This document shows positions 2,364 through 62,082 of a stretch of DNA of 64,000 nt, piece after piece. The stretch is from Schmidtea polychroa. Taxonomy: Eukaryota. Positions within the stretch are counted from its first letter, which is position 1. Each line of letters begins with the position of its first letter. Under the pieces are notes generated by a model. That model searched no databases. It was not told the origin of the DNA and saw nothing but the letters and a program-made list of their open reading frames with translations. The stretch is taken from the NCBI GenBank assembly GCA_044892525.1, contig CM097885.1, positions 18,416,001-18,480,000 on the forward strand, written 5' to 3'. A program made the position numbers and the translations under genes.

Positions 2364-32291
<29,928 letters not shown>

Positions 32292-35648: not shown

Positions 35649-36287
35649 ATGGAATTACGAAATGATGCAGTATACCAAATCGTTAGTCCAAGTGGTAGCG
35701 GAAAATCATTATTTGTTTGTAAATTACTAAAATCAAATTTGTTCAAAACAAAATTCAACAATATTTTATGGCATAGGGGCGCCGACGAAGAACATGGATT
35801 GACGCAATCAAGTTTCTGTCAATTGAAAAACATGAAAATAGTAAAGGGTTTTGATAAAAACGGGTCAAGACGTTTGAGGAAAGTTGATGTCATCATTATC
35901 GATGATTTGTATCAAGAAGCCAATAAAGAAAAGGATTTTAATAATTTATTCACAAAAATCAGCAGACATGTTGGTGTAACAGTTATTTTCATAACACAAA
36001 ATCTATTTCATCAAGGTGGTGCACATCGAACACGTAATTTAAATGTACAATATTTAGTTATTTTCAAGAATCCTAGAGATGCAACTGTCATTGATTTTCT
36101 TGGACGACAAGCATACCCTAATAACCGTAATTTTATTATCAATGCATTTCAAGATGCTACGAAAATACCACAAGGGTATATATTTCTCGATTTTGCACAA
36201 CAATGTCCTGATGATATATGGGTAAAAACAGATATTTTCAACCCAAAAGGTGCCATGGTTTATAAACAAAGTTCAAAACAAATTTGA
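35649..36287 (+). CDS. Polinton packaging ATPase (A32/FtsK-like)
   Basis: Walker A SPSGSGKS, Walker B IIIDD, then LFTKISRH..VTVIFITQNLF, LNVQYLVIFKNPRD and YIFLD. Confidence 0.9.
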   Translation: MELRNDAVYQIVSPSGSGKSLFVCKLLKSNLFKTKFNNILWHRGADEEHGLTQSSFCQLKNMKIVKGFDKNGSRRLRKVDVIIIDDLYQEANKEKDFNNLFTKISRHVGVTVIFITQNLFHQGGAHRTRNLNVQYLVIFKNPRDATVIDFLGRQAYPNNRNFIINAFQDATKIPQGYIFLDFAQQCPDDIWVKTDIFNPKGAMVYKQSSKQI

Positions 36288-36300
36288 AAACATATAAATA

Positions 36301-36795
36301 ATGTTTTCAAAAACAAGGATATCGAGTAAAAAACAACCAAAAGTTCCACCAACAACTAGTTATACTCCATCTAAAGAACTTATTACAGAAAATTTTCCTG
36401 CAATGAATCTTATTTCGAAAAATTCTAAACCTAAACCTAAAAATAAAACCAGTAAGAAAGTAAAAGTTGTTAAAAATCATCGGAGTTTCCCGTTTTTTAA
36501 TACATTGATAAAGGCACCAAGTATGAAAAGAAACAGTATTTTGCAATCATTTCCAAATTATGTTGTCGATGATTTACTCGATATTATACTTAAAGTAGTC
36601 AAAGGCAAGATTAAAATCAGTAAATCTAAAAAGCAATTATTGAGTAAACATAGGAAACCTTTGCTATCATTAGTAAATAATAAAAATCGTCAACCAATGA
36701 GAAAAATTATATATAAACAACAATGGGGATTTATCGGTGCATTGATACCTTTAACAATATCATTATTAGGTGGAATAATAGGAAATCGATCATAA
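36301..36795 (+). CDS. Basic Polinton protein with C-terminal amphipathic helix (putative core/membrane-lytic precursor)
   Basis: Lys-rich ORF ending QQWGFIGALIPLTISLLGGII, like the Q-x-G-G-F-L tails of conserved Polinton ORFs. Confidence 0.6.
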   Translation: MFSKTRISSKKQPKVPPTTSYTPSKELITENFPAMNLISKNSKPKPKNKTSKKVKVVKNHRSFPFFNTLIKAPSMKRNSILQSFPNYVVDDLLDIILKVVKGKIKISKSKKQLLSKHRKPLLSLVNNKNRQPMRKIIYKQQWGFIGALIPLTISLLGGIIGNRS

Positions 36796-36856
36796 ACAAT
36801 GGGTGCTAATCATTCATTACCCGACATTAAATTTAATATTAAATCTTATTGTTGTA

Positions 36857-37880
<1,024 letters not shown>

Positions 37881-37884
37881 AAAT

Positions 37885-38033
37885 TTTTAAATCAGAGTCA
37901 ACTACCACAAAACGGGAATTTACGACTGGATATAAATTTTGCAAAGGTCGTTACAGAACCGGTACATGTTATAATATATGGAGTATTTGAAAATGAAGTT
38001 CAAATTACTGCAAATAGAACCGTGCTAGTATAA
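37885..38033 (+). pseudogene. C-terminal fragment of a Polinton major capsid protein
   Basis: GNLRLDINFAKVVTEPVHVIIYGVFENEVQITANRTVLV* matches the typical Polinton MCP C-terminus pattern. It is joined directly to the integrase by a deletion. Confidence 0.7.
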
Positions 38034-46244: not shown

Positions 46245-46931
46245 TTGAGAAGAAAAGTAATTAAATTCAATTTAAAGTCAGACAATTTATATAATAAATT
46301 CGATTTACACAATTTTTATTTAAATTACAATTTTCACTTATTTAAGTAAAACAAAAATATATTATAGAAACTATATAAAAAATGTAAATATAATCAGACC
46401 AGATAAACATATTCAACAGCCATTTCTCATTTACAAAATGTTAACTAAATATAATAATTTCATATAGTCCGATTATTTCTAAAGATTTTACAGCCTGCCG
46501 ATTTATCCATGAACCATTTTGACCATTGTCATTCGCATACAATATTTGAGGAAATGTATATCCTTTGCCGTTCTGATCCTTTTTTGCATTATCACATTGA
46601 TCAGAATTTGTAAAGACGTGTGGTGGTTTGATAAAAAGATCTTTTCGGGTTCATATTATTGTTAGGATTTGTTCCGTATTTCGCGAATTGTAATGGATGA
46701 GGGTGTTGGTCTATGAGAGCCAACACTAAAACTATTGGGAGCCGAATACAGTTTATCTTGATAATGATAACATGGCATCGAATTTGCTTTACTCGTCTGA
46801 GATTGATTAATAGAGCCTGATTGATAAGTAGAAGTATTAGCTGATCGCACGACTTTTGATTGACTATACTTGTGTTCTGTTTGGTCCTTATTCGTTGGTG
46901 ACGGCGCATTTATATATAATATAATATAATA

Positions 46932-49772
46932 TAAAACAATAAAATGATAATTTAAGCCTTTTGCTGCAAATAATGTATTTAATGAAAGAATTTTCGACTA
47001 TACGATAGTCCTTGTCAATCTCCTGGAATTTAGCAATGTTCTTCTTCAAAATACCCTTCAATCTTTCTTTTATTTCCTTTCTCTTAATTCCCATTGGTTG
47101 TAAATATAATGAATTGTTTTACTAAAAACTTTTAAAATTTTTTTTATAATTTTTACATTTAAAATTTCAAAATGACACAAACTAAAATTTTTAAATTTTT
47201 TACAGCTTCTATAATTAGCTTCTAGAAGCCTAATAAAATATTTGAAAATATTTTAAATAAAGCCTCCAATAACTACTTATATATGCTATTTAAATATTTC
47301 AATAAATGTGTCAATTTTGATTTTCAAACCCTATTTTTTAAAATTTTTTTCTATATTATTCTAATTATTACTTTTTAATTTATTCTTATTTTTTTATAAT
47401 TTCTTTGTATATTGTCAGTTATTCTCAAAGTCAATGACAACAGATCAAATTCATGATTTCATTGATTTCTTCTTTAGTGTTGATCTTTGGCTGTCTGTTT
47501 ATTATGAGAATTGCTTCTTTGATTCTGACATTTTTCTTTTGGATGTTTCCATTAGCTATGATTTCTATTGAAATATTTTTTCTTTCCTCTGTTGGCTGAC
47601 ACTGCCGGGGAGAATTTTGCATTATAGAGAAGAATCGTTACTGTGAAGCTGGTTACGAACACCTCGGCAACATCGAAACATACAAGAAAGTCAGCCGCAT
47701 GTCACCAAACACCATCGAAATGAAGATCAACAAAGTATGGAAAGCCATAGCTTTGGAAATGAGGCTCAACAACAGAATAACCAACAGCTTCGTCACAAAA
47801 AATTCTGATCTTCCTAACTTCTACCACCTAATTAAAACTCACAAAGAGGGTCCTGGTATCAAAATTAGACCTATAGTGTCCAACAAAAATGGACCAACAA
47901 CTAAAACAAGTTGGCTCCTTGCAAAGATCTTGAAACCTTTATTGGACACGATACCACACCATCTTCAAAGCAGCGACTGCCTCATGACAAGACTAAATAA
48001 TAACATGACTTGTCATAGAGAATTCCAATACCCATTTAGTCTTGATGTCGTATCACTATACACATCTATCGAACCAACAGAGGCTATTCAATGTTTAGAA
48101 AAGAAATTAAGAGAAAGCAACTTGTTAATAAAGGAAATGAATACCGAGAATATCACCAAACTACTTACTGTTATCCTAGAGAACACCTATTTTACCTTTG
48201 AACAAAATATCTATAAACAAGTTAAAGGTCTGCCTATGGGTTCTAGCATATCAGGACTGCTAGCAATCATCTTTATGGATAACCTCGAACGACAGACACT
48301 GAGGACCATACAACCCATCGGTTTCTATGCAAGATATGTAGATGATATCTTCATCTTGACCAAAAACAGAAAAGAAGCGGAGGAAATATTTCATTCATTC
48401 AATGCGGCTCATCAAGATATTAAGTTCGAAATCGAATATCCGGAAGAAGATGGATCCCTCAATTTATTGGATTTGAGAATCAAAATAGAAGAAAAAGAAA
48501 ATACTCCAACATACGGGTTCTACAGAAAACCAGCTCGCAAAGAAATATTTATGCACCAAAGATCAGCGCTTCCATACTTACAGAAAGTAAATGTCATAAG
48601 AAACGAGAAACGAAGAATAGCCAATCGATGCACGGAGAAAAACGAAAACTTTAAAGAGCAATCAAATTTCAATAAAATCCTACACCGAAACGGATACCAA
48701 GGTGAGGACATTGAAAAAATGAATTCTACCCCAAGAAGATCTAGGGAATTAACACAAAAGAATCAGAAATATTTCTATCTGAATATCCCATTCATCAGTG
48801 ACATACTCGACTTCAAGATCCTGAAAGAACTTAAACGTACCGGTCTTCCAATTCGGATAGCACATAAATCTTGGACATTGAGAAGGGCTCTGGCAGGCAA
48901 CATAAATAGAGAAAACAATTGCACAATGAAAAACTGCCAGACACCGAAAGATATGTGCTTTAGAAAAAACATCGTCTATTGCATCACGTGCAATGTATGC
49001 AATGAAATCTACATTGGAAGTACCCTCAGGACATTGCACCAAAGAGTTAAAGAACATCTAGATCCTGGTGGAACATCCTCGTTGGGCAGACATCTCCGGC
49101 AGTGTCAGCCAACAGAGGAAAGAAAAAATATTTCAATAGAAATCATAGCTAATGGAAACATCCAAAAGAAAAATGTCAGAATCAAAGAAGCAATTCTCAT
49201 AATAAACAGACAGCCAAAGATCAACACTAAAGAAGAAATCAATGAAATCATGAATTTGATCTGTTGTCATTGACTTTGAGAATAACTGACAATATACAAA
49301 GAAATTATAAAAAAATAAGAATAAATTAAAAAGTAATAATTAGAATAATATAGAAAAAAATTTTAAAAAATAGGGTTTGAAAATCAAAATTGACACATTT
49401 ATTGAAATATTTAAATAGCATATATAAGTAGTTATTGGAGGCTTTATTTAAAATATTTTCAAATATTTTATTAGGCTTCTAGAAGCTAATTATAGAAGCT
49501 GTAAAAAATTTAAAAATTTTAGTTTGTGTCATTTTGAAATTTTAAATGTAAAAATTATAAAAAAAATTTTAAAAGTTTTTAGTAAAACAATTCATTATAT
49601 TTACAACCAATGGGAATTAAGAGAAAGGAAATAAAAGAAAGATTGAAGGGTATTTTGAAGAAGAACATTGCTAAATTCCAGGAGATTGACAAGGACTATC
49701 GTATAGTCGAAAATTCTTTCATTAAATACATTATTTGCAGCAAAAGGCTTAAATTATCATTTTATTGTTTTA
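46932..49772 (+). mobile_element. Penelope-like retroelement, 5'-truncated, with inverted pLTR (46932-47608 mirrors 49096-49772)
   Basis: The mirror ORF 47431-47622 duplicates the endonuclease C-terminus. The arms are essentially identical. Confidence 0.95.
47609..49273 (+). CDS. Penelope-like reverse transcriptase + GIY-YIG endonuclease (5'-truncated just after the DKG motif)
   Basis: KIRPIVS, FSLDVVSLYTSI, YKQVKGLPMGSSIS, RYVDDIF, LNLLDL, YRKP. Cys linker and NIVYCITCNVCNEIYIGST..R.KEH, KEAILI..QPKIN. The frame is open from 47609. Confidence 0.95.
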   Translation, partial: GEFCIIEKNRYCEAGYEHLGNIETYKKVSRMSPNTIEMKINKVWKAIALEMRLNNRITNSFVTKNSDLPNFYHLIKTHKEGPGIKIRPIVSNKNGPTTKTSWLLAKILKPLLDTIPHHLQSSDCLMTRLNNNMTCHREFQYPFSLDVVSLYTSIEPTEAIQCLEKKLRESNLLIKEMNTENITKLLTVILENTYFTFEQNIYKQVKGLPMGSSISGLLAIIFMDNLERQTLRTIQPIGFYARYVDDIFILTKNRKEAEEIFHSFNAAHQDIKFEIEYPEEDGSLNLLDLRIKIEEKENTPTYGFYRKPARKEIFMHQRSALPYLQKVNVIRNEKRRIANRCTEKNENFKEQSNFNKILHRNGYQGEDIEKMNSTPRRSRELTQKNQKYFYLNIPFISDILDFKILKELKRTGLPIRIAHKSWTLRRALAGNINRENNCTMKNCQTPKDMCFRKNIVYCITCNVCNEIYIGSTLRTLHQRVKEHLDPGGTSSLGRHLRQCQPTEERKNISIEIIANGNIQKKNVRIKEAILIINRQPKINTKEEINEIMNLICCH

Positions 49773-50082
49773 AATAATAAATGCTGCTACCAAGCAATCA
49801 TCATTTTATACTTATAATATAATATAATATAGTATAATAGGTATATAAATATTGTTAAGGCCGTGTAACGGCTCACTACAACTCGTTTACCCTTTCCGTA
49901 TTGATTTTCGATTTTTAGTAAATTTTAATTAATTTTGTGCTTTTGTTGTTTGGAACTTTTCATTGATGTTAACAATATTTGTTATTTCTTCCTCTTTTAT
50001 ATATATTTTTTGGTTTTCGTACTAACCTCAACAATATTGTTTTTTTCGAGATCATTTACATTCATTCTTCCAGACTATAGAT

Positions 50083-51808: not shown

Positions 51809-52400
51809 CACACTATAGTGAGGGGGTCTCGATGGTCCTGGGATTTTCAATACAAAAAAAATTTTCAATAGAAAAAGGCGGTCTCAATAAAAAAAGCATG
51901 GATTATTCACACTATAGTGAGGGGGTCTCGATGGTCCTGGGATTTTCAATACAAATAAATTTTTCAATAGAAAAAGGCGGTCTCAATAAAAAAAAGCATG
52001 GATTTTTCTAGGTCAATTCAGGTGGGTCTCCTTGGTCCTGAGAAAAAGGTGGTCTACACTAAAAAACGTGGTAAATTTTTTAAATTACAGTAAATATTGG
52101 TTCTAAAAAAAATTAAATTACAGTAAATTATGGTCAAAAATTTTGAATTACAGAAAATTATGATCAAAAATTTTCAATTACAGTAAATAATGGTCCAAAT
52201 TTTTGAATTAAAGTAAATAATGGTTCTAAAAAATTAAATTAAAGTAAATTATGGTTCAAATTTTTCAATTACAGTAAATAATGGTTCTAAAAATTAAATT
52301 AAAGTAAATTATGGTTCTAAAAAATTTAAATTAAAGTAAATTATGGTTCTAAAAAAAAATTAAATTAAAGTTAATTAAGGTCCAAATTTAAAAATTAAGT
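51809..52400. repeat. Subterminal tandem repeats of Polinton C (2 x ~100 bp, then ~30-bp AATTA(C/A)AGTAAAT(T/A)ATGGT units)
   Basis: Direct reading; HYSEGVSMVLGFSIQ appears twice in the ORF track. Confidence 0.85.
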
Positions 52401-52807
52401 AATCAATGGTAAAAATTTTAAATAAGTAAATTAAAGTAATAATTTTTAAATTAAGTAATCAATGGTAAAAAATTTTAAATAAGTAAATTAAAGTAATAAT
52501 TTAAAAATGAGTAATGTAATAAGTAAATTAAAGTAAGATTTTAAAATTTATTAACAAAAAATAGGTGTTTGAGAATTGAAATTTTTTAATGAAAATTTTT
52601 TATGAATAATTTTTAATGGAAATTTTAATAGAATCATTTTTAAGATAATTTTAAATGGAAATTTTTATGAAATATTTTTCAATGGTAATTTTTAATGGAA
52701 ATTTTAATGGAATAATTTTCAATGATAATTTTAGATGGAAATTTTTAAGATAATTTTTAATGAAAATTTTTATAAAATATTTTTCAAAGACAAATTTTAA
52801 TAATAAT

Positions 52808-54040
52808 TCAACAACAAACCAACAACTTAGTACCAACAACCAGTAACTTACGAACATGTATTAACAACAAGATACCAACAACCAGTTACCAACTACTAAG
52901 TACCTACAACCACCTACCCATTAACTAGCTACAACCAGCAAACAACTAGCTACCACCTACCCATTAACTGGCTACAACTAGTTACCTGATACCAAGTACC
53001 AACAACCGACAGCAACCAGGTACTAAGCATTATCAACCAACTACTAAGTACCTACAACCAACTAGCTACCACCTACCAAGTACTCACAACCGACAACAAT
53101 CAACTAACAACTAGATACCAAGTACCTACAACTAGTTACTAACAACCAGTTACCTGCTACCAAGTACTTACAACTAGTTACTAACAACCAGTTACATGAT
53201 AACAAGTACTTACAACATGTTACCTGATACCAAGTACTAACAACATGTTACCTGTTACCAAGTACATACAACCAACATCAACCAGATACCTACAACTAGA
53301 TACTAACAACCAGTTACATGCTACCAAGTACTTACAACTAGATACCAAGTATTATCAACCAAAAACAATCAACCAACTAGGTACTAGATACCAAGTACTA
53401 ACAACCAACAACAACCAGGTACTAAGCATTATCAACCAACTAAATACTAAGTACTAACAACCAACCAACTAGGTACTAGATACCATGTACTCACAACCGT
53501 CAACAACCAGCTACTAAGCATTATTAACCAACTACTAAGTACCTACAACCAACTAGTTACCACCTACCAAGTACATACAACTAGATACTAACAACCAAAA
53601 ACAACCAAAAACAACCAACCAACTAGGTACTAGATACCAAGTACTAACAACCTACAACAACTAGGTACTAAGCATTATCAACGAAGTTCCTAAAACCACC
53701 TAACAAGTACATACAACCAACATCAACCAGGTACTAAGCATTAATTACCAACTACTAAGTACCTACCAAGTACATACAACCAACATCAACCAGATACCTA
53801 CAACTAGATACTAACAACCAGTTACCAAGTACCTACAACCACCTACCCATTAACTAGCTACAACCAGCTAACAACTAGCTACCAACTACCAAGTACTAAC
53901 AACCAACAACCAGCTAACAACTAACTACCAGATACCAACTACTTACAACCAACAACTAAGTACTAACAACCAGCTAACAACTAGATACCTAGTACTAAGC
54001 ACTGTCAACTAGATACCAAGCACTGACAACCAGATGACCA
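52808..54040. repeat. A/C-rich degenerate minisatellite (CAACCAACTA/ACCAAGTAC units)
   Basis: Strongly G-poor top strand with recurring motifs. Confidence 0.85.
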
Positions 54041-54433
54041 CATGAAATTATTAGTTAAATATGAAAATAAGGGTTATAATTAGTTGTTTAGTAAATTATG
54101 GTGTAAAATTAAGAAATAAAGAATAATTAGGTAAATTAAAGTTAAAAATTTTAAATAAGTAAATTAAGGTTCAAAATTTAAAATTAAGTATCCAATGGTC
54201 CAAATTTTAAATTAAAGCTAAATAAGTAAATTAAAGTAAGATTTTTAAATTTATTATCAAAAGATTGAATAATCACCAACTTTTTTGAGAAATGTAATTT
54301 TTAATGAAATATTTTTTTAAGTTAATTTTAAATGTAAAATTTTTTAAGATAATTTTAAATACAAATTTTAATGAAATAATTTTTAAGTTAATTTCAATGA
54401 AATATTTTTCAAAGTCAAATGAAAATTTAAATG

Positions 54434-54484
<51 letters not shown>

Positions 54485-56575
54485 TAATAATAATTCAATA
54501 GTTCCCAACAATCGGTTACTAAATATTTTTAACTATGTGCTAACAAATAAGTACCAAATACTTACAACTAGATACCATGTACTAACTAACTCTCAAACAA
54601 CCAAGTAAAAACAATCAAGTACCAACAACCTACTAAATATTCTTCATTGTATTTTATAAAATGCTTTTTAAATTAATTTTTTATCTGTCTTCAAAAATAA
54701 TTTTAATTACAATCAGTAGAAAAACCATTTCAAAATGTCTAAATTTAACAAAAATGTTGATTTTCATCAAAAAACCACAACTCAATCACTTTAAAACACC
54801 ACGTGAAATTCAAAATAATTTAAATTACAATGAAAGACTAATGAATTCTAATTTACAAAACATTCTTCTTTTAATTGATAAAAAATGTGTAAATCTTTAA
54901 AGAATGGATGCCTTTGTAAAACTAAAAATGGTAAAGGATTATATTTAAAACCTTGGAAGGAACCATGATACCATTTTTGATACCATTAAAATGGTATATG
55001 AAGAAAGATTAGCACTTTTAAAAAAATTGATAACTACTCAATGTAAAAAACGCATTCAATAAATACTTATTGTTGATCAGTTTTATTATATATACTCTGA
55101 GTTTATCCGACAGGATGTTTTGACCCCCCTAAGGGTACTGGTCGTAGGGTACTGGTTGTAAGGATATTGCTAACACTCAACCCCCATCTACCCATTAAGT
55201 AGTTACTAAGTACTATCAACCAGCTAGCAACTAAATACCATGTACTAACAACCACCATCAAAACCCATCGAGAAATTAACAAATATCAACCTACAACTAT
55301 ATAACAACAATCAGTAAACAACATTGTACCAACTACCAAATACAAGATACCAACAACTTAGTACCAACAATCAACTAACAACACATAAAAATAATAGCAA
55401 TTAAATACAAAATATTCTTCATCACATACACTATTTTCTTATCAAAATCTAAAAAGTCAATCAGATACTATCAACCAGATACCTAGTACTAACAAATAGA
55501 TCTTTAAAAGCAAATACTCATCACTTGAAAAATTAGATGGAAAATTAATTGAACTCAAGACATCAATAACTTGATAAAAATTGATTAAATAATTATAAAA
55601 ACTTAAATTATTCAAAACATACTAAATAAAAAAATATAATTAATGGACAGGAATTCTAGTCATTAATCATCAAGTAAATAAAAAAAATACAGATCATTCA
55701 AGTTAATATGAAAGTAGTGTGTATATATACCCAACCAACACAACCCTCCCAACAAAAACATACCTCCATTACGCTTAAACCATTAGAAAAACAACCTAAA
55801 ACTTATACTTTTATAGTATTTTAACCCCATATTTTAAACAACAACCACCCTTAATCTTTAAAGCCTCAAACTCAAAATCTTCAAACTAAAAAGAGAATAG
55901 AAAAGAAAATGGCATTATGAAAAAGTTAGAGGGCTATTTGGGATAGGGCTATATACACACTACTTTTGATCGCAATCAAACTCCGGAGTTGATCTTTATC
56001 AGATTATTGATTTTAAATTATATAAATTAAAAAATAAATGAAAAATAGTAAAATTGCTCTGAGGGGACAGTGGTATTTTTTTTTTTTTCACTGTCCCCTC
56101 AACAGTTTTTTTGATCCGGATCATTTTTTTATTTATCAACCTCTTTCGTTTATCAAATCTCTTCTAATATACAAGCTGGCCAGACTCATACATCAGAATC
56201 AATCCGATAATAGCAGCACACCTTATTATTCGCTTCTCGCTCGAATACGATTTCATCGGCGTTTTAAGCGTGCTGCTCGAAAGTACAAATGAATTCGAAA
56301 GTGAATCCGAAAGAGGTCCGAAAACAACTGAGAAATAAATGTGCACATTAAAGAATCGATCCGGGGGTGTTCGAAAGACAGGTGGCGATAATTACCGGTT
56401 CGCCACCATCACCCGTTTCAATAATTTTTTTTTCATATTTATGTTTAAAAATAAAATAATTAATAAAATAAATAAAATAAATAAAATAAAATAAAATATA
56501 CAACTACTTTATAAATCTAAGATACCCACACTATTATTTTCAAATTTTTAATATTATTTTATGTTGAAAAAAAAC

Positions 56576-56648
56576 TAACCACAGTTAGGATTTGAACCGC
56601 TATCCATTTGAACCACGGTGCCGGTCTAGCCCACTGCTCTATCTAGGT
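56576..56648 (-). ncRNA. tRNA-like Pol III unit 1
   Basis: Minus strand ACCTAGA TAGAGCAGTGG...GGTTCAAATCC...TGGTTA, then T8. Boxes are at tRNA spacing but the stems are poor. Confidence 0.55.
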
Positions 56649-56895
56649 TTGGATTTTTTTCATTTTTTAGACTATAAATAATCGATTCAAGTTCTTTAAC
56701 TCTTTCCTGTAATTGTTTCATTTTCTTCAATCTTATATCAGCAACATCTACAGCCTTCATATAAAAATGTCGATACTTTTCATTATCTACCATCAACTCT
56801 TTGATGTATTCTAATGGTTCTTCTTCTCTTCTTTTCATTCTCTTATGTTTAACTTCATTCAATTCATTTCTCATTCTTTCTTTTAACTCATCCAT
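56626..56895 (-). CDS. Small charged coiled-coil protein (89 aa), Polinton accessory
   Basis: ATG ORF with E/K/R/L heptad-like composition; function unknown. Confidence 0.55.
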   Translation of the reverse strand: MDELKERMRNELNEVKHKRMKRREEEPLEYIKELMVDNEKYRHFYMKAVDVADIRLKKMKQLQERVKELESIIYSLKNEKNPNLDRAVG

Positions 56896-57059
56896 TTTTA
56901 TAAATATTTTTTTTATTGGATATATTAATTTTTGTTAGTTAAAACGTTTTTGATCTTAAATTTCCAAGAGTTGCCGTTGACCAATCACTTTAAAAATTTG
57001 TACAAGTACTAAATCGAGTATGCTGATCAATATTTCGTTAAAAGAAATTTGAAAAAAAA

Positions 57060-57132
57060 TGACCGAAATGGGATTTGAACCCTTTGGTATTGGCAATGTA
57101 GTCGAGTGCTATTACCACTAAGCTATTAGATC
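57060..57132 (-). ncRNA. tRNA-like Pol III unit 2
   Basis: GATCTAA TAGCTTAGTGGTAATAGC...AAGGG TTCAAAT CCCAT TTCGGTC A, then T8. Acceptor (6/7), D and T arms pair; the anticodon arm does not. Confidence 0.7.
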
Positions 57133-57303
57133 TATACTCAATATAAAATAAGTTGTTAATGTGTGACTATTTATTGATGAAATTAATAATTAATTATTCA
57201 TTTTCTCGACAACTACCACTCAGATCCATCTGAAAATTTAAATATATACTAAAATCAGTACGCTGAATCAGATTCCGTTGGAAAGAAAATATCGAAAAAA
57301 ATT

Positions 57304-57376
57304 GACCAAAATCGAAAATTGAACCCGGTACTCCCGGTGATAAAATTGAAGCCTATTCCCACTCCGCTATAATGGC
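57304..57376 (-). ncRNA. tRNA-like Pol III unit 3
   Basis: GCCATTA TAGCGGAGTGG...CCGGG TTCAATT TTCGA TTTTGGTC, then T7. Partial acceptor and T stems; anticodon arm unpaired. Confidence 0.6.
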
Positions 57377-57432
57377 TTACATAATATATTTAATTAATCC
57401 TATTTTGTGTGTGTAAATTTTAATATATAAAA

Positions 57433-58719
57433 ATGAATAATATAAAAATTCAAGAAAAAAATAAATTAAATCTTGATTATAATAAAGAATTTACTCATGA
57501 AATCAAGAAAAACGATGTACTTAAAATCTCCCCAACTTCAGGATCTATTGCAAACTTAAATCGTAGGGGTGATATAGTTTTTCAATCTCTTCAAACATCA
57601 AACCCTATAGATATTTGTAATGCCAAATTATATTATAAAATTGAATTAGAAATTGAAGCAAACAAAGATATAACCCTAGAGAATAATTTCTTTCCAAATT
57701 TATTCTCCAACATGAGATTAAAACTAGGATCATCAGAAATTGAAACTGTTTTGCATCCGGGAGTATATTCTACAATGTTAAATTTTATTTTGACAGGTTG
57801 TGATTATAAAAATGAATATGGTGAATTAACAGGTTGGATTCCTGATGTTAATAAAGGAGATTTAGATAAAGATGGTTTAGATATAAATTATGGTTATTAT
57901 AAAAGAGCTGAACTTTATAAATCTAAAAAATTTGAAGGTTATTTTGAATTAAAACACTTGTTTGGATTCCTTCAAAACTATAACCGTGTACTTCATAATG
58001 TTTTTATAGAATTCATCTGTAATAGACTAGAAGGTGATAAAAGATTGTTCTATGGAGCTGCAGACACAACAGCTAAATTAAAAATATCAACACTTGAATT
58101 GCATATACCTGAATGGACATTAAATCCACATTCTGAAATCAAACTCCTTGAAAGATTAAATTCCAACAAGTCTATAAATGTAAATTATTTAAATAGAATC
58201 TGTAGTGAATTTAGTATGACAGAGGGTTCAACATATTCTATAAAGGTAGCAAATTTAGCATACCGACCAAGATATATCTTGATTGGATTCAAAGAAACAG
58301 ATTCATCTTTCCAAAAAAATAACAATCTATTTATTCAAAAGATTGGAGATGATAATTTAAAAACAATCCAAATTCAATTAAATAGTTCTTATTATCCAAT
58401 AAATAGAATGGAATTTAATATTGAAAATAATGAAAACATATTCCCATATCTAAATTATATTGAAACATGTTATGATTTCAAAGTTGAACCGCAATTAAGT
58501 TTAGAAGATTTCAAAAATTTATATTCTATATTTTGTATAAATGTTTCAGACCAAGATGATCGCCTAGCCATAAATAATGTTGATGTTACACTTCATGTAA
58601 CAAAGGATTCTAATTTCAAAGCTAAAGTATATACATTAATATTAGAAGAAAAGAAAATAGAAATGAAATTATATGGTGGAAAGATTTCAATAATCGAAAA
58701 TGTTAGAGGAGATTCTTGA
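57433..58719 (+). CDS. Polinton major capsid protein (double jelly-roll, PY)
   Basis: 428-aa intact ORF with NNFFPNLFS..RLKLGS.EIE, LKHLFGF.QNY.RV, RPRYILIGF, IQIQLNS..YP, FKNLYSIFCINVS. Context supports the call. Confidence 0.85.
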   Translation: MNNIKIQEKNKLNLDYNKEFTHEIKKNDVLKISPTSGSIANLNRRGDIVFQSLQTSNPIDICNAKLYYKIELEIEANKDITLENNFFPNLFSNMRLKLGSSEIETVLHPGVYSTMLNFILTGCDYKNEYGELTGWIPDVNKGDLDKDGLDINYGYYKRAELYKSKKFEGYFELKHLFGFLQNYNRVLHNVFIEFICNRLEGDKRLFYGAADTTAKLKISTLELHIPEWTLNPHSEIKLLERLNSNKSINVNYLNRICSEFSMTEGSTYSIKVANLAYRPRYILIGFKETDSSFQKNNNLFIQKIGDDNLKTIQIQLNSSYYPINRMEFNIENNENIFPYLNYIETCYDFKVEPQLSLEDFKNLYSIFCINVSDQDDRLAINNVDVTLHVTKDSNFKAKVYTLILEEKKIEMKLYGGKISIIENVRGDS

Positions 58720-60569: not shown

Positions 60570-61193
60570 ATGACCTCGAAGAGTTCCTCTACTGAAGAAT
60601 CTTTGCAAGAATTAATAAATTCAAATAAAAATAAATCAGTAGTAATTGATGGTAAAAAATATTTTATTGGAAAACATGTAAAAGAACAAGTTAGAGCGAA
60701 GCTGAAGGGCTCTTCGACTAAAGAAGGCGGCATTCTTCCATTAGCTGCTTTAATACCTGCAATCATTGCCGGACTATCAGGTGCTGCTGGAATAGCTGGA
60801 GGAATTGCAACTACAGTTCAGAAAGCTAAAGAATCTCAAAAGACAGACCTAGAAAAAGAAAAACTACAAACTGAAATCGATTCAATGAAAAAGAAGGGAG
60901 TGTCCGAAGGTCAAAAGTCCGTTGGTAAAGGTCTCTATCTTAATCCATATCAGAAAGTGTCCGAAGGTCAAAAGTCTCAGGGGAGTTCCTCCGTTGGAAA
61001 GGGTCTCTATCTTGATCCTTATAAAGGCCGCGGTTTAAATGATTTTTTAAAAAATCAAATTTCATCATCTGAATCTTTATCTTCAAAAGATAAAGATGAT
61101 TTAAAAAAAATGTGTAAATCTTTAAAGAATGGATGCCTTTGTAAAACTAAAAATGGTAAAGGATTATATTTAAAACCTTGGAAGGAACCATGA
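60570..61193 (+). CDS. Putative protease-processed virion core/membrane-lytic precursor
   Basis: KEGG|ILPLAALIPAIIAGLSGAAGIAGG helix and three GKGLYLxP(Y/W) repeats, as seen in Polinton structural ORFs. Confidence 0.65.
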   Translation: MTSKSSSTEESLQELINSNKNKSVVIDGKKYFIGKHVKEQVRAKLKGSSTKEGGILPLAALIPAIIAGLSGAAGIAGGIATTVQKAKESQKTDLEKEKLQTEIDSMKKKGVSEGQKSVGKGLYLNPYQKVSEGQKSQGSSSVGKGLYLDPYKGRGLNDFLKNQISSSESLSSKDKDDLKKMCKSLKNGCLCKTKNGKGLYLKPWKEP

Positions 61194-61215
61194 TACCATT
61201 TTTGATACCATTAAA

Positions 61216-62082
61216 ATGGTATATGAAGAAAGATTAGCACTTTTAAAAAAATTACAATCAGAACAAAACAAGTATAATAAAAAAGATACAACTCAACATG
61301 CTGAATCTATAATATTAAATGAGGTAATCCAAAAACAACAAGGACCAACAATTAAAGCTATAAAAGGATTAAATGAGCAAGCAAAATTTAAAGAGTTGGA
61401 AGATAAAAAACAAAAAATAAAAGAATTGGAGTGGGAGAAAGAATCCACTGAAAATCATCCTGAAAGTCATTCTGAAAGAAATCAAAGAAAACGTAGAAGA
61501 ACCTCTAATGTGGAAGAAGAAGAAATGTTTTTAAAAACAAAACCTCTTAAAGTTAATCCTAAAATTAGAGAAGGTTTAAGTGATTCAATTAAACCCACAT
61601 TTCATATTAATTCTGAAGGATATTCAATAATAACAATCAATAAACAAAACTTTACTTTATATACAACTCCAGAAAATAAATCACATATTCATTCACAAAA
61701 TGTTTATAATAATGAATATTTAGACTTTGAATTTACAGATGATTTTTATAGATTACTTAGTGGATATCCTTCAGATGATGTTGAAGAAATTAAAAAATAT
61801 TTAAATTTTATAAGATCAATAAAAGCTAGTTCAAAAGCAAAACACATTCAAGATTTAAAGAAATATTTAGATAGAAATGAAAAGGGTTATGTTGTTAAAG
61901 AAGGTGATGGTATAAGGGTTAAACCAAACCCAATCAACCTTTTTATTGAATTAAGAAAACTATTAGCAGCTAAAAAAGCAGGTCATAATAATTTAGATTA
62001 TGATATTTTAAAGATTTCTAAAGATTTGTTAAAACAAGGAATAATTTCAAAAGATAAATTTAATAAATATACGAAGTTATAA
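61216..62082 (+). CDS. Conserved Polinton protein (C-terminal GxG..PxxL..L..L.A.K.AGHNN motif)
   Basis: 288-aa ORF; the tail EGDGIRVKPNPINLFIELRKLLAAKKAGHNN...LLKQGII resembles a recurrent Polinton ORF end. Has an NLS-like RKRRR. Confidence 0.6.
   Translation: MVYEERLALLKKLQSEQNKYNKKDTTQHAESIILNEVIQKQQGPTIKAIKGLNEQAKFKELEDKKQKIKELEWEKESTENHPESHSERNQRKRRRTSNVEEEEMFLKTKPLKVNPKIREGLSDSIKPTFHINSEGYSIITINKQNFTLYTTPENKSHIHSQNVYNNEYLDFEFTDDFYRLLSGYPSDDVEEIKKYLNFIRSIKASSKAKHIQDLKKYLDRNEKGYVVKEGDGIRVKPNPINLFIELRKLLAAKKAGHNNLDYDILKISKDLLKQGIISKDKFNKYTKL

Follow-up and report, generated by a model that had tools for sequence, protein, structure and literature searches.

Whether animal Polintons, which to our knowledge are known almost only by their proteins, also encode small non-coding RNAs (ncRNAs) is the question raised by a Polinton in a 64,000-nucleotide stretch of the Schmidtea polychroa genome (contig CM097885.1, positions 18,416,001 to 18,480,000; this whole stretch is called the window below). 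Three tRNA-like RNA polymerase III (Pol III) units, named here U1, U2 and U3, lie beside its major capsid protein (MCP) gene, and a sequence-only reading of the window had proposed that all three are virus-encoded small RNAs comparable to the virus-associated (VA) RNAs of adenoviruses, or else chromatin barriers bound by TFIIIC. Comparison of copies across the genome indicates that the units are of two origins, U1 and U2 being host DNA and U3 a feature of the Polinton. The best overall explanation, to which we give a probability of about one half, is that U3 is a TFIIIC/TFIIIB site at the inner edges of the terminal inverted repeats (TIRs), that a folded element close to it, F, is the RNA product, and that U1 and U2 are captured host modules.

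Three tRNA-Like Pol III Units Upstream of the Capsid Gene

All three units are 73 nt long, lie on the minus strand and are divergent from the capsid gene (Table 1), the start of U1 being 57 bp before the ATG of the 428-aa capsid open reading frame (ORF). Each has the A box TAG-N3-AGTGG at position 8, a B box (GGTTCAATT in U1, GGTTCAAATCC in U2 and U3) starting 44, 44 and 43 nt after the A box in U1, U2 and U3, respectively, and a run of seven or eight T residues 0–2 nt past its 3′ end; these are the A box at +8, the B box at tRNA spacing and the run of at least four T that define a type-2 Pol III unit. Scanning the window with the combined A-box, B-box and T-run pattern, which was drawn up with the units already in view, returned these three sites and no others, and none in 200 dinucleotide shuffles. 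Re-reading and scan confirmed the layout described by the sequence-only reading, including the position of the cluster relative to the capsid gene, as well as the mutual divergence of the units with boxes and terminators intact (ungapped pairwise identities of 40/73, 33/73 and 28/73).

The low tRNA scores that had been expected were also obtained. ARAGORN called no tRNA gene on U1–U3, and the Rfam model RF00005 scored U2 alone, which reached 30.3 bits (cut-off 29) and has a broken anticodon stem. By these two programs and by folding, none of the units has the cloverleaf and intact anticodon arm of a functional tRNA. No unit was more stable than its own shuffles (z of +0.36, −0.36 and −0.06 for U1, U2 and U3, compared with −3.15 for a host tRNA-Lys), so that they look like promoters or TFIIIC sites and not like VA-like RNAs. 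Overall, the sequence evidence supports their reading as tRNA-derived type-2 Pol III modules. Their parent tRNA was not found among the 63 candidates scored in a genome search with RF00005, where the typed loci were arrays of Lys and Arg genes; the TGCA-centred loop in most U2 copies may point to tRNA-Cys. The host tRNA genes stand in long tandem arrays, with a period of 424 bp for Lys(TTT) and 278 bp for Arg(TCG) (L122 on G000:C4; L145/L149).

U3 Is Part of the Polinton Terminal Inverted Repeat

The element has the long TIRs, the AG…CT ends (AGTAGTG…CACTACT) and the 6-bp target duplication of a Polinton/Maverick of the adintovirus type, together with a double jelly-roll MCP (PF21738). TATGAA flanks both ends of the window copy, and its left terminus, 55713, is the point at which copies elsewhere in the genome start. 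U3 lies within the TIR near the inner edge and hence occurs at both Polinton ends: out of 30 loci picked with U3, 15 were beside the MCP gene, 14 beside pPolB and one beside neither, all had Polinton flanks and none was a free short interspersed element (SINE). The claim that tRNA-derived Pol III units are carried by the Polinton itself therefore holds for U3, but not for U1 and U2 (see below). Among 48 distinct rows chosen by their capsid protein, independently of the insert that contains U1 and U2, U3 was present in 33. Where a subfamily lacks the 89-aa ORF, about 40 bp separate U3 from the start of MCP, and at the right end the pPolB-like ORF is about 100 bp away.

The U3 alignment used the 76 of 90 loci with a coverage of 85% or more of the segment, which gave 64 distinct rows with a mean identity of 88%. 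Columns with less than 90% agreement numbered 0 of 32 in the boxes (the A box and both B-box copies) and 19 of 41 elsewhere (Fisher p 2e-6), although this count uses box borders chosen with the data in view, and its rows, being related subfamilies, do not represent independent events. The anticodon arm of U3 had been described as broken; there is indeed no cloverleaf, but the place of the arm is occupied by a second copy of the B box (GGTTCAAAT), and one locus has three B boxes (L226). Whole U3 units are tandemly duplicated, with a period of 232–235 bp, in 10 of 60 loci. The stem covariation put forward earlier as a check on an RNA function was not seen across U3 copies, the 5′ and 3′ acceptor halves being mixed between subfamilies. 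The boxes and the terminator are kept and the RNA fold is not, so U3 most likely acts at the DNA level, and its conservation pattern would fit a landing site for TFIIIC and TFIIIB better than a structural RNA.

We propose that U3 is a domesticated tRNA gene made part of the Polinton TIR, in which selection would retain the TFIIIC-binding boxes and the terminator, not the RNA fold. Each TIR would receive TFIIIC and TFIIIB at its inner edge, a position upstream of the first gene of that end (MCP on the left, pPolB on the right), from which U3 points away; the loaded U3 would hold the element end in an open state, form a barrier to silencing and, possibly, assist Pol III in transcribing F downstream. 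The TFIIIC barrier suggested by the sequence-only reading may survive in this form, but not as a shield from the repeat-rich arm, since that stretch (about 51.8–55.7 kb) lies outside the element.

U1 and U2 Derive From the Host rDNA Spacer

A genome search with U2 alone gave many matches about 13.7 kb apart on unplaced contigs, and the only part of the window that they matched is the one listed with the insert in Table 1. The matching repeat carries the 18S, 5.8S and 28S genes (Rfam), that is, the ribosomal DNA (rDNA) repeat of about 14 kb, and its intergenic spacer holds an array of units in the order U0, U1, U2, U2, U2, spaced by 237–244 bp, antisense to the rRNA (L063:5888-6927, G000:C218) and located 3–4 kb upstream of the 18S 5′ end. 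Over 29 Polinton copies, the median mismatch to the rDNA was 1.6% for the U1 block and 3.2% for the U2 block. The downstream flanks of U1 and U2 are alike (0 of 200 shuffles as good), so that these two are old duplicates of each other, and the flanks of U3 match no other unit. Loci picked with U2 (n = 30) had rDNA-spacer flanks in 22 cases and Polinton flanks in 8, and the flanks were rDNA in all 20 U0 loci fetched.

In the Polinton, the segment with U1 and U2 is an insert. The exact empty site was found in at least 40 copies, the top 40 matches to the empty junction being 99–100% identical, and the two breakpoints of the insert are at most 4 nt and 0 nt away from where the rDNA match ends, AATTTT being present at each. 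In a genome search with 56400–57450, the best 40 matches were full-length, at 93–100% identity. The insert precedes the MCP gene in 9 of the 48 capsid-picked rows and is missing there from the other 39. On an MCP tree of 109 rows (midpoint-rooted, with loci of less than 1000 nt of MCP and three self-duplicates excluded), the filled copies cluster (5 changes of state, as opposed to 34 with the labels shuffled), and every long-branch row is empty. The 5 changes imply that copies recombine, so that a gain is supported and the order of events is not proven.

The rDNA-spacer units were also found in a second placement, in a different TIR type, just outward of F and in the same orientation as U3, with variable deletions (L257, L258, L264, L265; also L041) and with spacer sequence that reaches past both ends of the window insert (L258, L265). 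Empty alleles are known for both placements (L072 and, for the second one, L260), and the two may share one capture. Spacer pieces within 1.5 kb of F are on the strand of F in 68 of 69 cases, mostly from one lineage, and the rDNA sequence found in the element is the Pol III array part only. In one locus (L228:3660-3880), a captured U2 is followed by an element of about 210 bp with inverted ends of about 30 bp that start AGTAGTG, like the Polinton terminus.

From these sequence comparisons a transfer of U1 and U2 from the host to the Polinton is highly probable. They would have been gained recently, by microhomology-type recombination from the antisense rDNA-spacer array into some Polinton ends, and would add further co-oriented modules that are useful or neutral to the element. 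Because they are near-identical to the host spacer and only a minority of copies have them, the two diverged from each other, with boxes intact, while still in the host array, and this divergence gives no evidence of viral selection, contrary to its earlier use as a viral sign. The budding-yeast rDNA spacer holds the 5S gene, and an antisense tRNA-like Pol III array in an animal rDNA spacer recalls that arrangement, as a host feature in its own right.

A Folded Element Downstream of U3

F shares the strand of U3 and is found about 150 nt further downstream. Folding of 56040–56430 gave a z of −7.66 on the minus strand and −5.06 on the plus strand, and the strand difference is larger in a pre-miRNA-like hairpin within F (Table 1): minus-strand folding yields −25.1 kcal/mol (z −6.02), plus-strand folding −2.8 kcal/mol (z +0.75). 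G-U pairs and A-C mismatches number 8 and 0 in this hairpin (binomial p 0.008), whereas a decaying DNA palindrome would yield both about equally. Across 132 distinct rows, judged on the structure derived from the window copy, variants present in at least nine rows preserve pairing at 11 positions and disrupt it at 4, and in 64 of the 132 one pair differs on both sides. Possible signals in F are TGGYGAACCGG, which resembles an A box, close to the 5′ end, and the runs T4/T5 at the 3′ end.

Rfam gave no match to F near any cut-off, no exact 27-nt match to F was found in viral contigs, and F was absent from the five rDNA loci checked and from the 15 loci that a metagenome scan for related Polintons returned. 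A resemblance to 7SL, 7SK or a hammerhead, weighed from recall, was rejected, Rfam having given it no support. Unstranded contigs from two runs of different studies, whose status as RNA is our guess, cover F, the MCP gene and parts of U1–U3, with DNA content possible; their summed depth was largest on F (up to 9515 compared with 224–1118 on MCP in run X1, and 65 compared with 0–35 in run X7), a measure that cannot rank the parts and is a lead only. Two further presumed-RNA runs had no contig on this stretch (four of the 12 listed runs examined).

As a candidate ncRNA with a predicted fold, F appears to us a much better counterpart than U1–U3 of the VA RNAs or of the TMERs (tRNA-miRNA-encoded RNAs) of murine gammaherpesvirus 68 (MHV68). 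It would be an RNA under structural selection, likely a VA/TMER-like product that, if transcribed and processed, serves as a substrate or decoy of the RNA interference (RNAi) pathway, and its hairpin may already be an annotated planarian miRNA. Only tentatively do we go further, to a Polinton lineage with its own Pol III small-RNA module in the TIRs, in which the tRNA-derived TFIIIC site would support an abundant, wobble-rich F, the hairpin would yield a small RNA or sponge host Dicer/RNAi, and rDNA-spacer Pol III units would be recruited as well.

Table 1. Features of the left Polinton end in the window (positions in the window; handles with a colon refer to other fetched loci).
Feature	Position	Strand	Remarks
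Target-site duplication TATGAA, 6 bp	55707..55712	.	Second copy past the right terminus at L116:7845
Left TIR, ~960 bp	55713..56673	.	Starts AGTAGTGTG; found again, inverted, next to the 5′ part of pPolB at the right end
Folded element F, ~380 nt, bounds approximate	56045..56424	-	Same strand as U3; candidate Polinton-encoded structured ncRNA
Pre-miRNA-like hairpin within F, 65 nt	56148..56212	-	25 pairs, 8 G-U, tandem GA/GA loop, no A-C mismatch
U3 terminator T8	56567..56574	-	From sequence
U3	56576..56648	-	tRNA-derived Pol III unit within the TIR; A box, two B-box copies, no cloverleaf; faces outward
89-aa ORF, no Pfam match	56626..56895	-	3′ end overlaps the first 23 nt of U3; missing from several subfamilies
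Insert missing from empty-site copies	56933..57415	-	Intergenic spacer of the host rDNA matched by 56937-57421; both breakpoints have AATTTT, and one has a 4-nt filler
U2	57060..57132	-	tRNA-like unit with T8; from the rDNA spacer, where each repeat has 1-3 tandem copies in addition to U0 and U1
U1	57304..57376	-	tRNA-like unit with T7; all 73 nt identical to an rDNA-spacer copy
MCP gene, double jelly roll	57433..58719	+	PF21738, E 1.1e-26; 428 aa

Alternative Explanations

Several observations weigh against the combination of U3 as a TFIIIC/TFIIIB site, F as its RNA product and U1 and U2 as captured modules. The filled or empty state of the insert site needs the five changes on the MCP tree given above. 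The rate of differences of F from the window copy is only slightly lower in paired than in unpaired positions (2.3 and 3.0%), F has no clear B box and one internal T4, and eight T-runs (the T8 of U3 and seven of T4–T5) lie between U3 and F, which makes a TMER-style read-through unlikely and leaves the promoter of F unexplained. The A box or one B box of U3 is lost in some copies (L217, L219, L225, L262). The expectation that boxes would be better conserved than spacers across copies was borne out within U3, but the boxes are no more conserved than the TIR at large, in which 35%, 43% and 63% of 11-nt windows are equal or better. No tRNA-like unit was found in 12 metagenome relatives by Rfam (MCP identity 31–53%) or in 13 by the B-box pattern, most of these contigs being too short for the TIR; the module may thus be limited to this lineage.

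In a neutral alternative, U3 would be a tRNA pseudogene that TIR homogenization and recent expansion have held uniform, the rDNA pieces having been captured by chance from a repeat that is abundant and prone to recombination. The family is of recent age and high copy number, with 1519 first-look U3 candidates in the genome and the top 40 at 99–100% identity, its U3 boxes are not distinct from the whole TIR, and most Polinton ends lack U1 and U2, for which, considered alone, a neutral history has about an even chance. Neutrality of the whole is nevertheless somewhat unlikely, as the variation of U3 avoids all 32 box columns, B boxes and whole U3 units have been duplicated repeatedly, the sole rDNA sequence found in the element is the Pol III array part of a repeat of about 14 kb, and the G-U bias of F would be left unexplained. 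Quite unlikely, in our view, is the original proposal that transcripts of about 75 nt from U1–U3 are themselves VA- or TMER-like effectors acting as tRNA mimics or decoys. PKR, the main VA target, is a vertebrate protein, no unit is more stable than its shuffles, the acceptor halves of U3 are mixed without covariation, and U1 and U2 are host sequence found in many rDNA repeats and missing at this site in most capsid-picked rows, even though the intact promoters and terminators of U1–U3 predict short transcripts and U2 retains enough of the acceptor, D and T arms for 30–36 bits with RF00005. In MHV68, the tRNA-like part alone is reported to rescue pathogenesis (PMC8223928), which speaks for such effectors.

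The direction of transfer could also be reversed, a Polinton end being the original home of the U0-U1-U2 array and concerted evolution having carried it across the host rDNA. Around the A box, one U3 variant (AGTGGGAATAG) is similar to U1, the period of the U3 duplications is near that of the rDNA array, and the spacer piece in the second Polinton placement is larger; but both placements have empty alleles, U0 was flanked by rDNA wherever it was fetched, the common flanks join U1 and U2 only, and the long-branch Polinton rows have no insert, so that we judge this direction very unlikely. Extremely unlikely is an origin of the units as heads of a genome-wide tRNA-SINE, which their tRNA derivation, A and B boxes and high copy number might suggest: none of the 80 fetched loci, all top-scoring matches (U3 30/30, U2 30/30, U0 20/20), was outside a Polinton or rDNA context, and no SINE body, A-tail or target duplication was seen around any unit. 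The sequence-only reading had named this origin, together with absence from other copies of the Polinton, as fatal to its proposal; SINE heads were not seen, yet U1 and U2 are missing from most copies of this Polinton.

Comparison With Known Systems and Relatives

We know of no VA unit within terminal repeats, and none of U1–U3 has the terminal stem, apical stem and central domain that a VA RNA joins in one stable fold; Rfam gave no VA match at E ≤ 10. Going by PMC7589676, the likeness of VA RNA to U1–U3 comprises the type-2 Pol III unit with A and B boxes, the T-run terminator, the related linear dsDNA lineage and the proposed tRNA origin, and VA RNAI is rich in wobble pairs as F is. VA RNAs differ in that the boxes lie inside the stable fold of terminal stem, central domain and apical stem (PMC7589676), whereas U1–U3 are unstructured and F, much longer, is without a clear B box. 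In the TMERs, a tRNA-like Pol III unit is followed on the same strand by pre-miRNA-like hairpins (PMC8223928), as the predicted hairpin of F follows U3. The TMERs are, however, single transcripts of a tRNA-like head and hairpins, which the T-runs over the ~150 nt between U3 and F speak against here, and it is their A box that is triplicated (PMC8223928), compared with the doubled B box of U3.

In Leishmania, a degenerate tRNA gene is kept for its A and B boxes beside a small-RNA gene, like U3: a transcribed tRNA-like element upstream of the U2 small nuclear RNA (snRNA) gene supplies the boxes to its neighbour (PMC4950102), which is a precedent for a helper role of U3. In that case the tRNA-Ala gene involved points away from the snRNA gene, and mutation demonstrated the function (PMC4950102), whereas U3 and F are in tandem and known from sequence alone. 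The chromatin barriers formed by tRNA genes (tDNA) with TFIIIC, and the extra-TFIIIC (ETC) sites, are like U3 B-box-dependent DNA elements at a domain border; these are host chromosomal sites, whereas here the element itself would carry the barrier at both ends. By analogy, the proposed U3–F module would work like a mix of a tDNA barrier or Leishmania tRNA-like helper and a TMER-type layout.

A Pol III promoter that comes from the gene of a small RNA and is kept in the terminal repeats of a mobile element is also found in the TRIMp3 elements, namely Helenus, with a tRNA-like sequence in its long terminal repeats (LTRs), and the 5S-derived Cassandra and Ajax (PMC10886601). TRIMp3 elements are non-autonomous LTR retrotransposons in which Pol III makes the genomic RNA, as shown for Cassandra (PMC10886601). 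Unlike these, the Polinton is a capsid-encoding DNA element, and U3 faces outward and terminates at once; it lies in an inverted repeat and not, as in Helenus, in the LTRs of a non-autonomous retroelement with primer-binding site and polypurine tract. The word Polinton is absent from the main text of the TRIMp3 paper (PMC10886601). In the available text of the adintovirus paper, tRNA comes up a single time, in connection with flags on other MELD viruses, and VA RNA never (PMC8502044). We found no publication describing ncRNAs or tRNA-like Pol III units within Polinton TIRs and no published account of a tRNA-like array in a planarian rDNA spacer, in searches that were thin on subscription journals and did not cover Repbase; the TIR-borne Pol III module, the hairpin RNA candidate F and the rDNA-spacer array are apparently undescribed.

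A scan of viral contigs for related Polintons gave no relative from 43 candidates, and two more divergent capsid queries returned the same family in this genome, so that no outgroup family was reached. One metagenomic relative with 51% MCP identity and a 1403-aa pPolB-like ORF contains, at L243:5436-5515 on the minus strand between two convergent ORFs, a hairpin matching the Rfam family mir-754 with 48.6 bits (E 9e-9; cut-off 84), which suggests a Polinton origin of this planarian miRNA family. A search of this genome with RF04009 (mir-754) gave no match, and as the search gave none anywhere it is uninformative.

If the U3–F module is real, it would be the first functional ncRNA of an animal Polinton and an independent parallel to the adenoviral VA RNA, and the mir-754-like hairpin would be a hint that Polintons encode some of the planarian miRNAs already annotated. 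With a conserved Pol III module and an RNA under structural selection in the TIRs, it would become apparent how an element of this type maintains active ends or escapes silencing by small RNAs, and the question of VA-type RNAs would become testable in a non-vertebrate with existing small-RNA and chromatin data.

Structure of This Copy and Other Features of the Window

The other genes of the element include an ORF with a PLA2 domain (E 1e-9) and a weak match to an A32 ATPase, below the cut-off; the labels integrase, protease and pPolB are our own reading of the ORFs, not the result of a profile search, and the pPolB-like ORF is split in this rearranged copy. Between the two pPolB-like gene parts (L061:3042-10000, L116:1-7844), about 11 kb of the element is present a second time in the window copy, inverted and including another set of U1–U3, and the whole structure between the target duplications measures about 24 kb.

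Outside the left terminus, a 155-bp piece of an internal Polinton gene (61099–61253) is repeated at 54874–55028 with 99% identity. The repeat-rich stretch at 51809–55700 consists of two 99-bp units starting CACACTATAG, followed by 30-, 28- and 13-bp and ACC-rich minisatellites. Farther away, an ORF with reverse transcriptase and GIY-YIG domains (46925–49779, Penelope-like) lies between perfect inverted repeats of 687 nt, and a second, decayed Polinton-type cassette (35649–37990) has an A32-like ATPase and an rve integrase, the latter interrupted in frame by a 150-bp ATT microsatellite. At 17216–23736, mirror-image sets of tandem arrays (21/43-bp, 17/18-bp and 30-bp) suggest a foldback element of about 6.5 kb.

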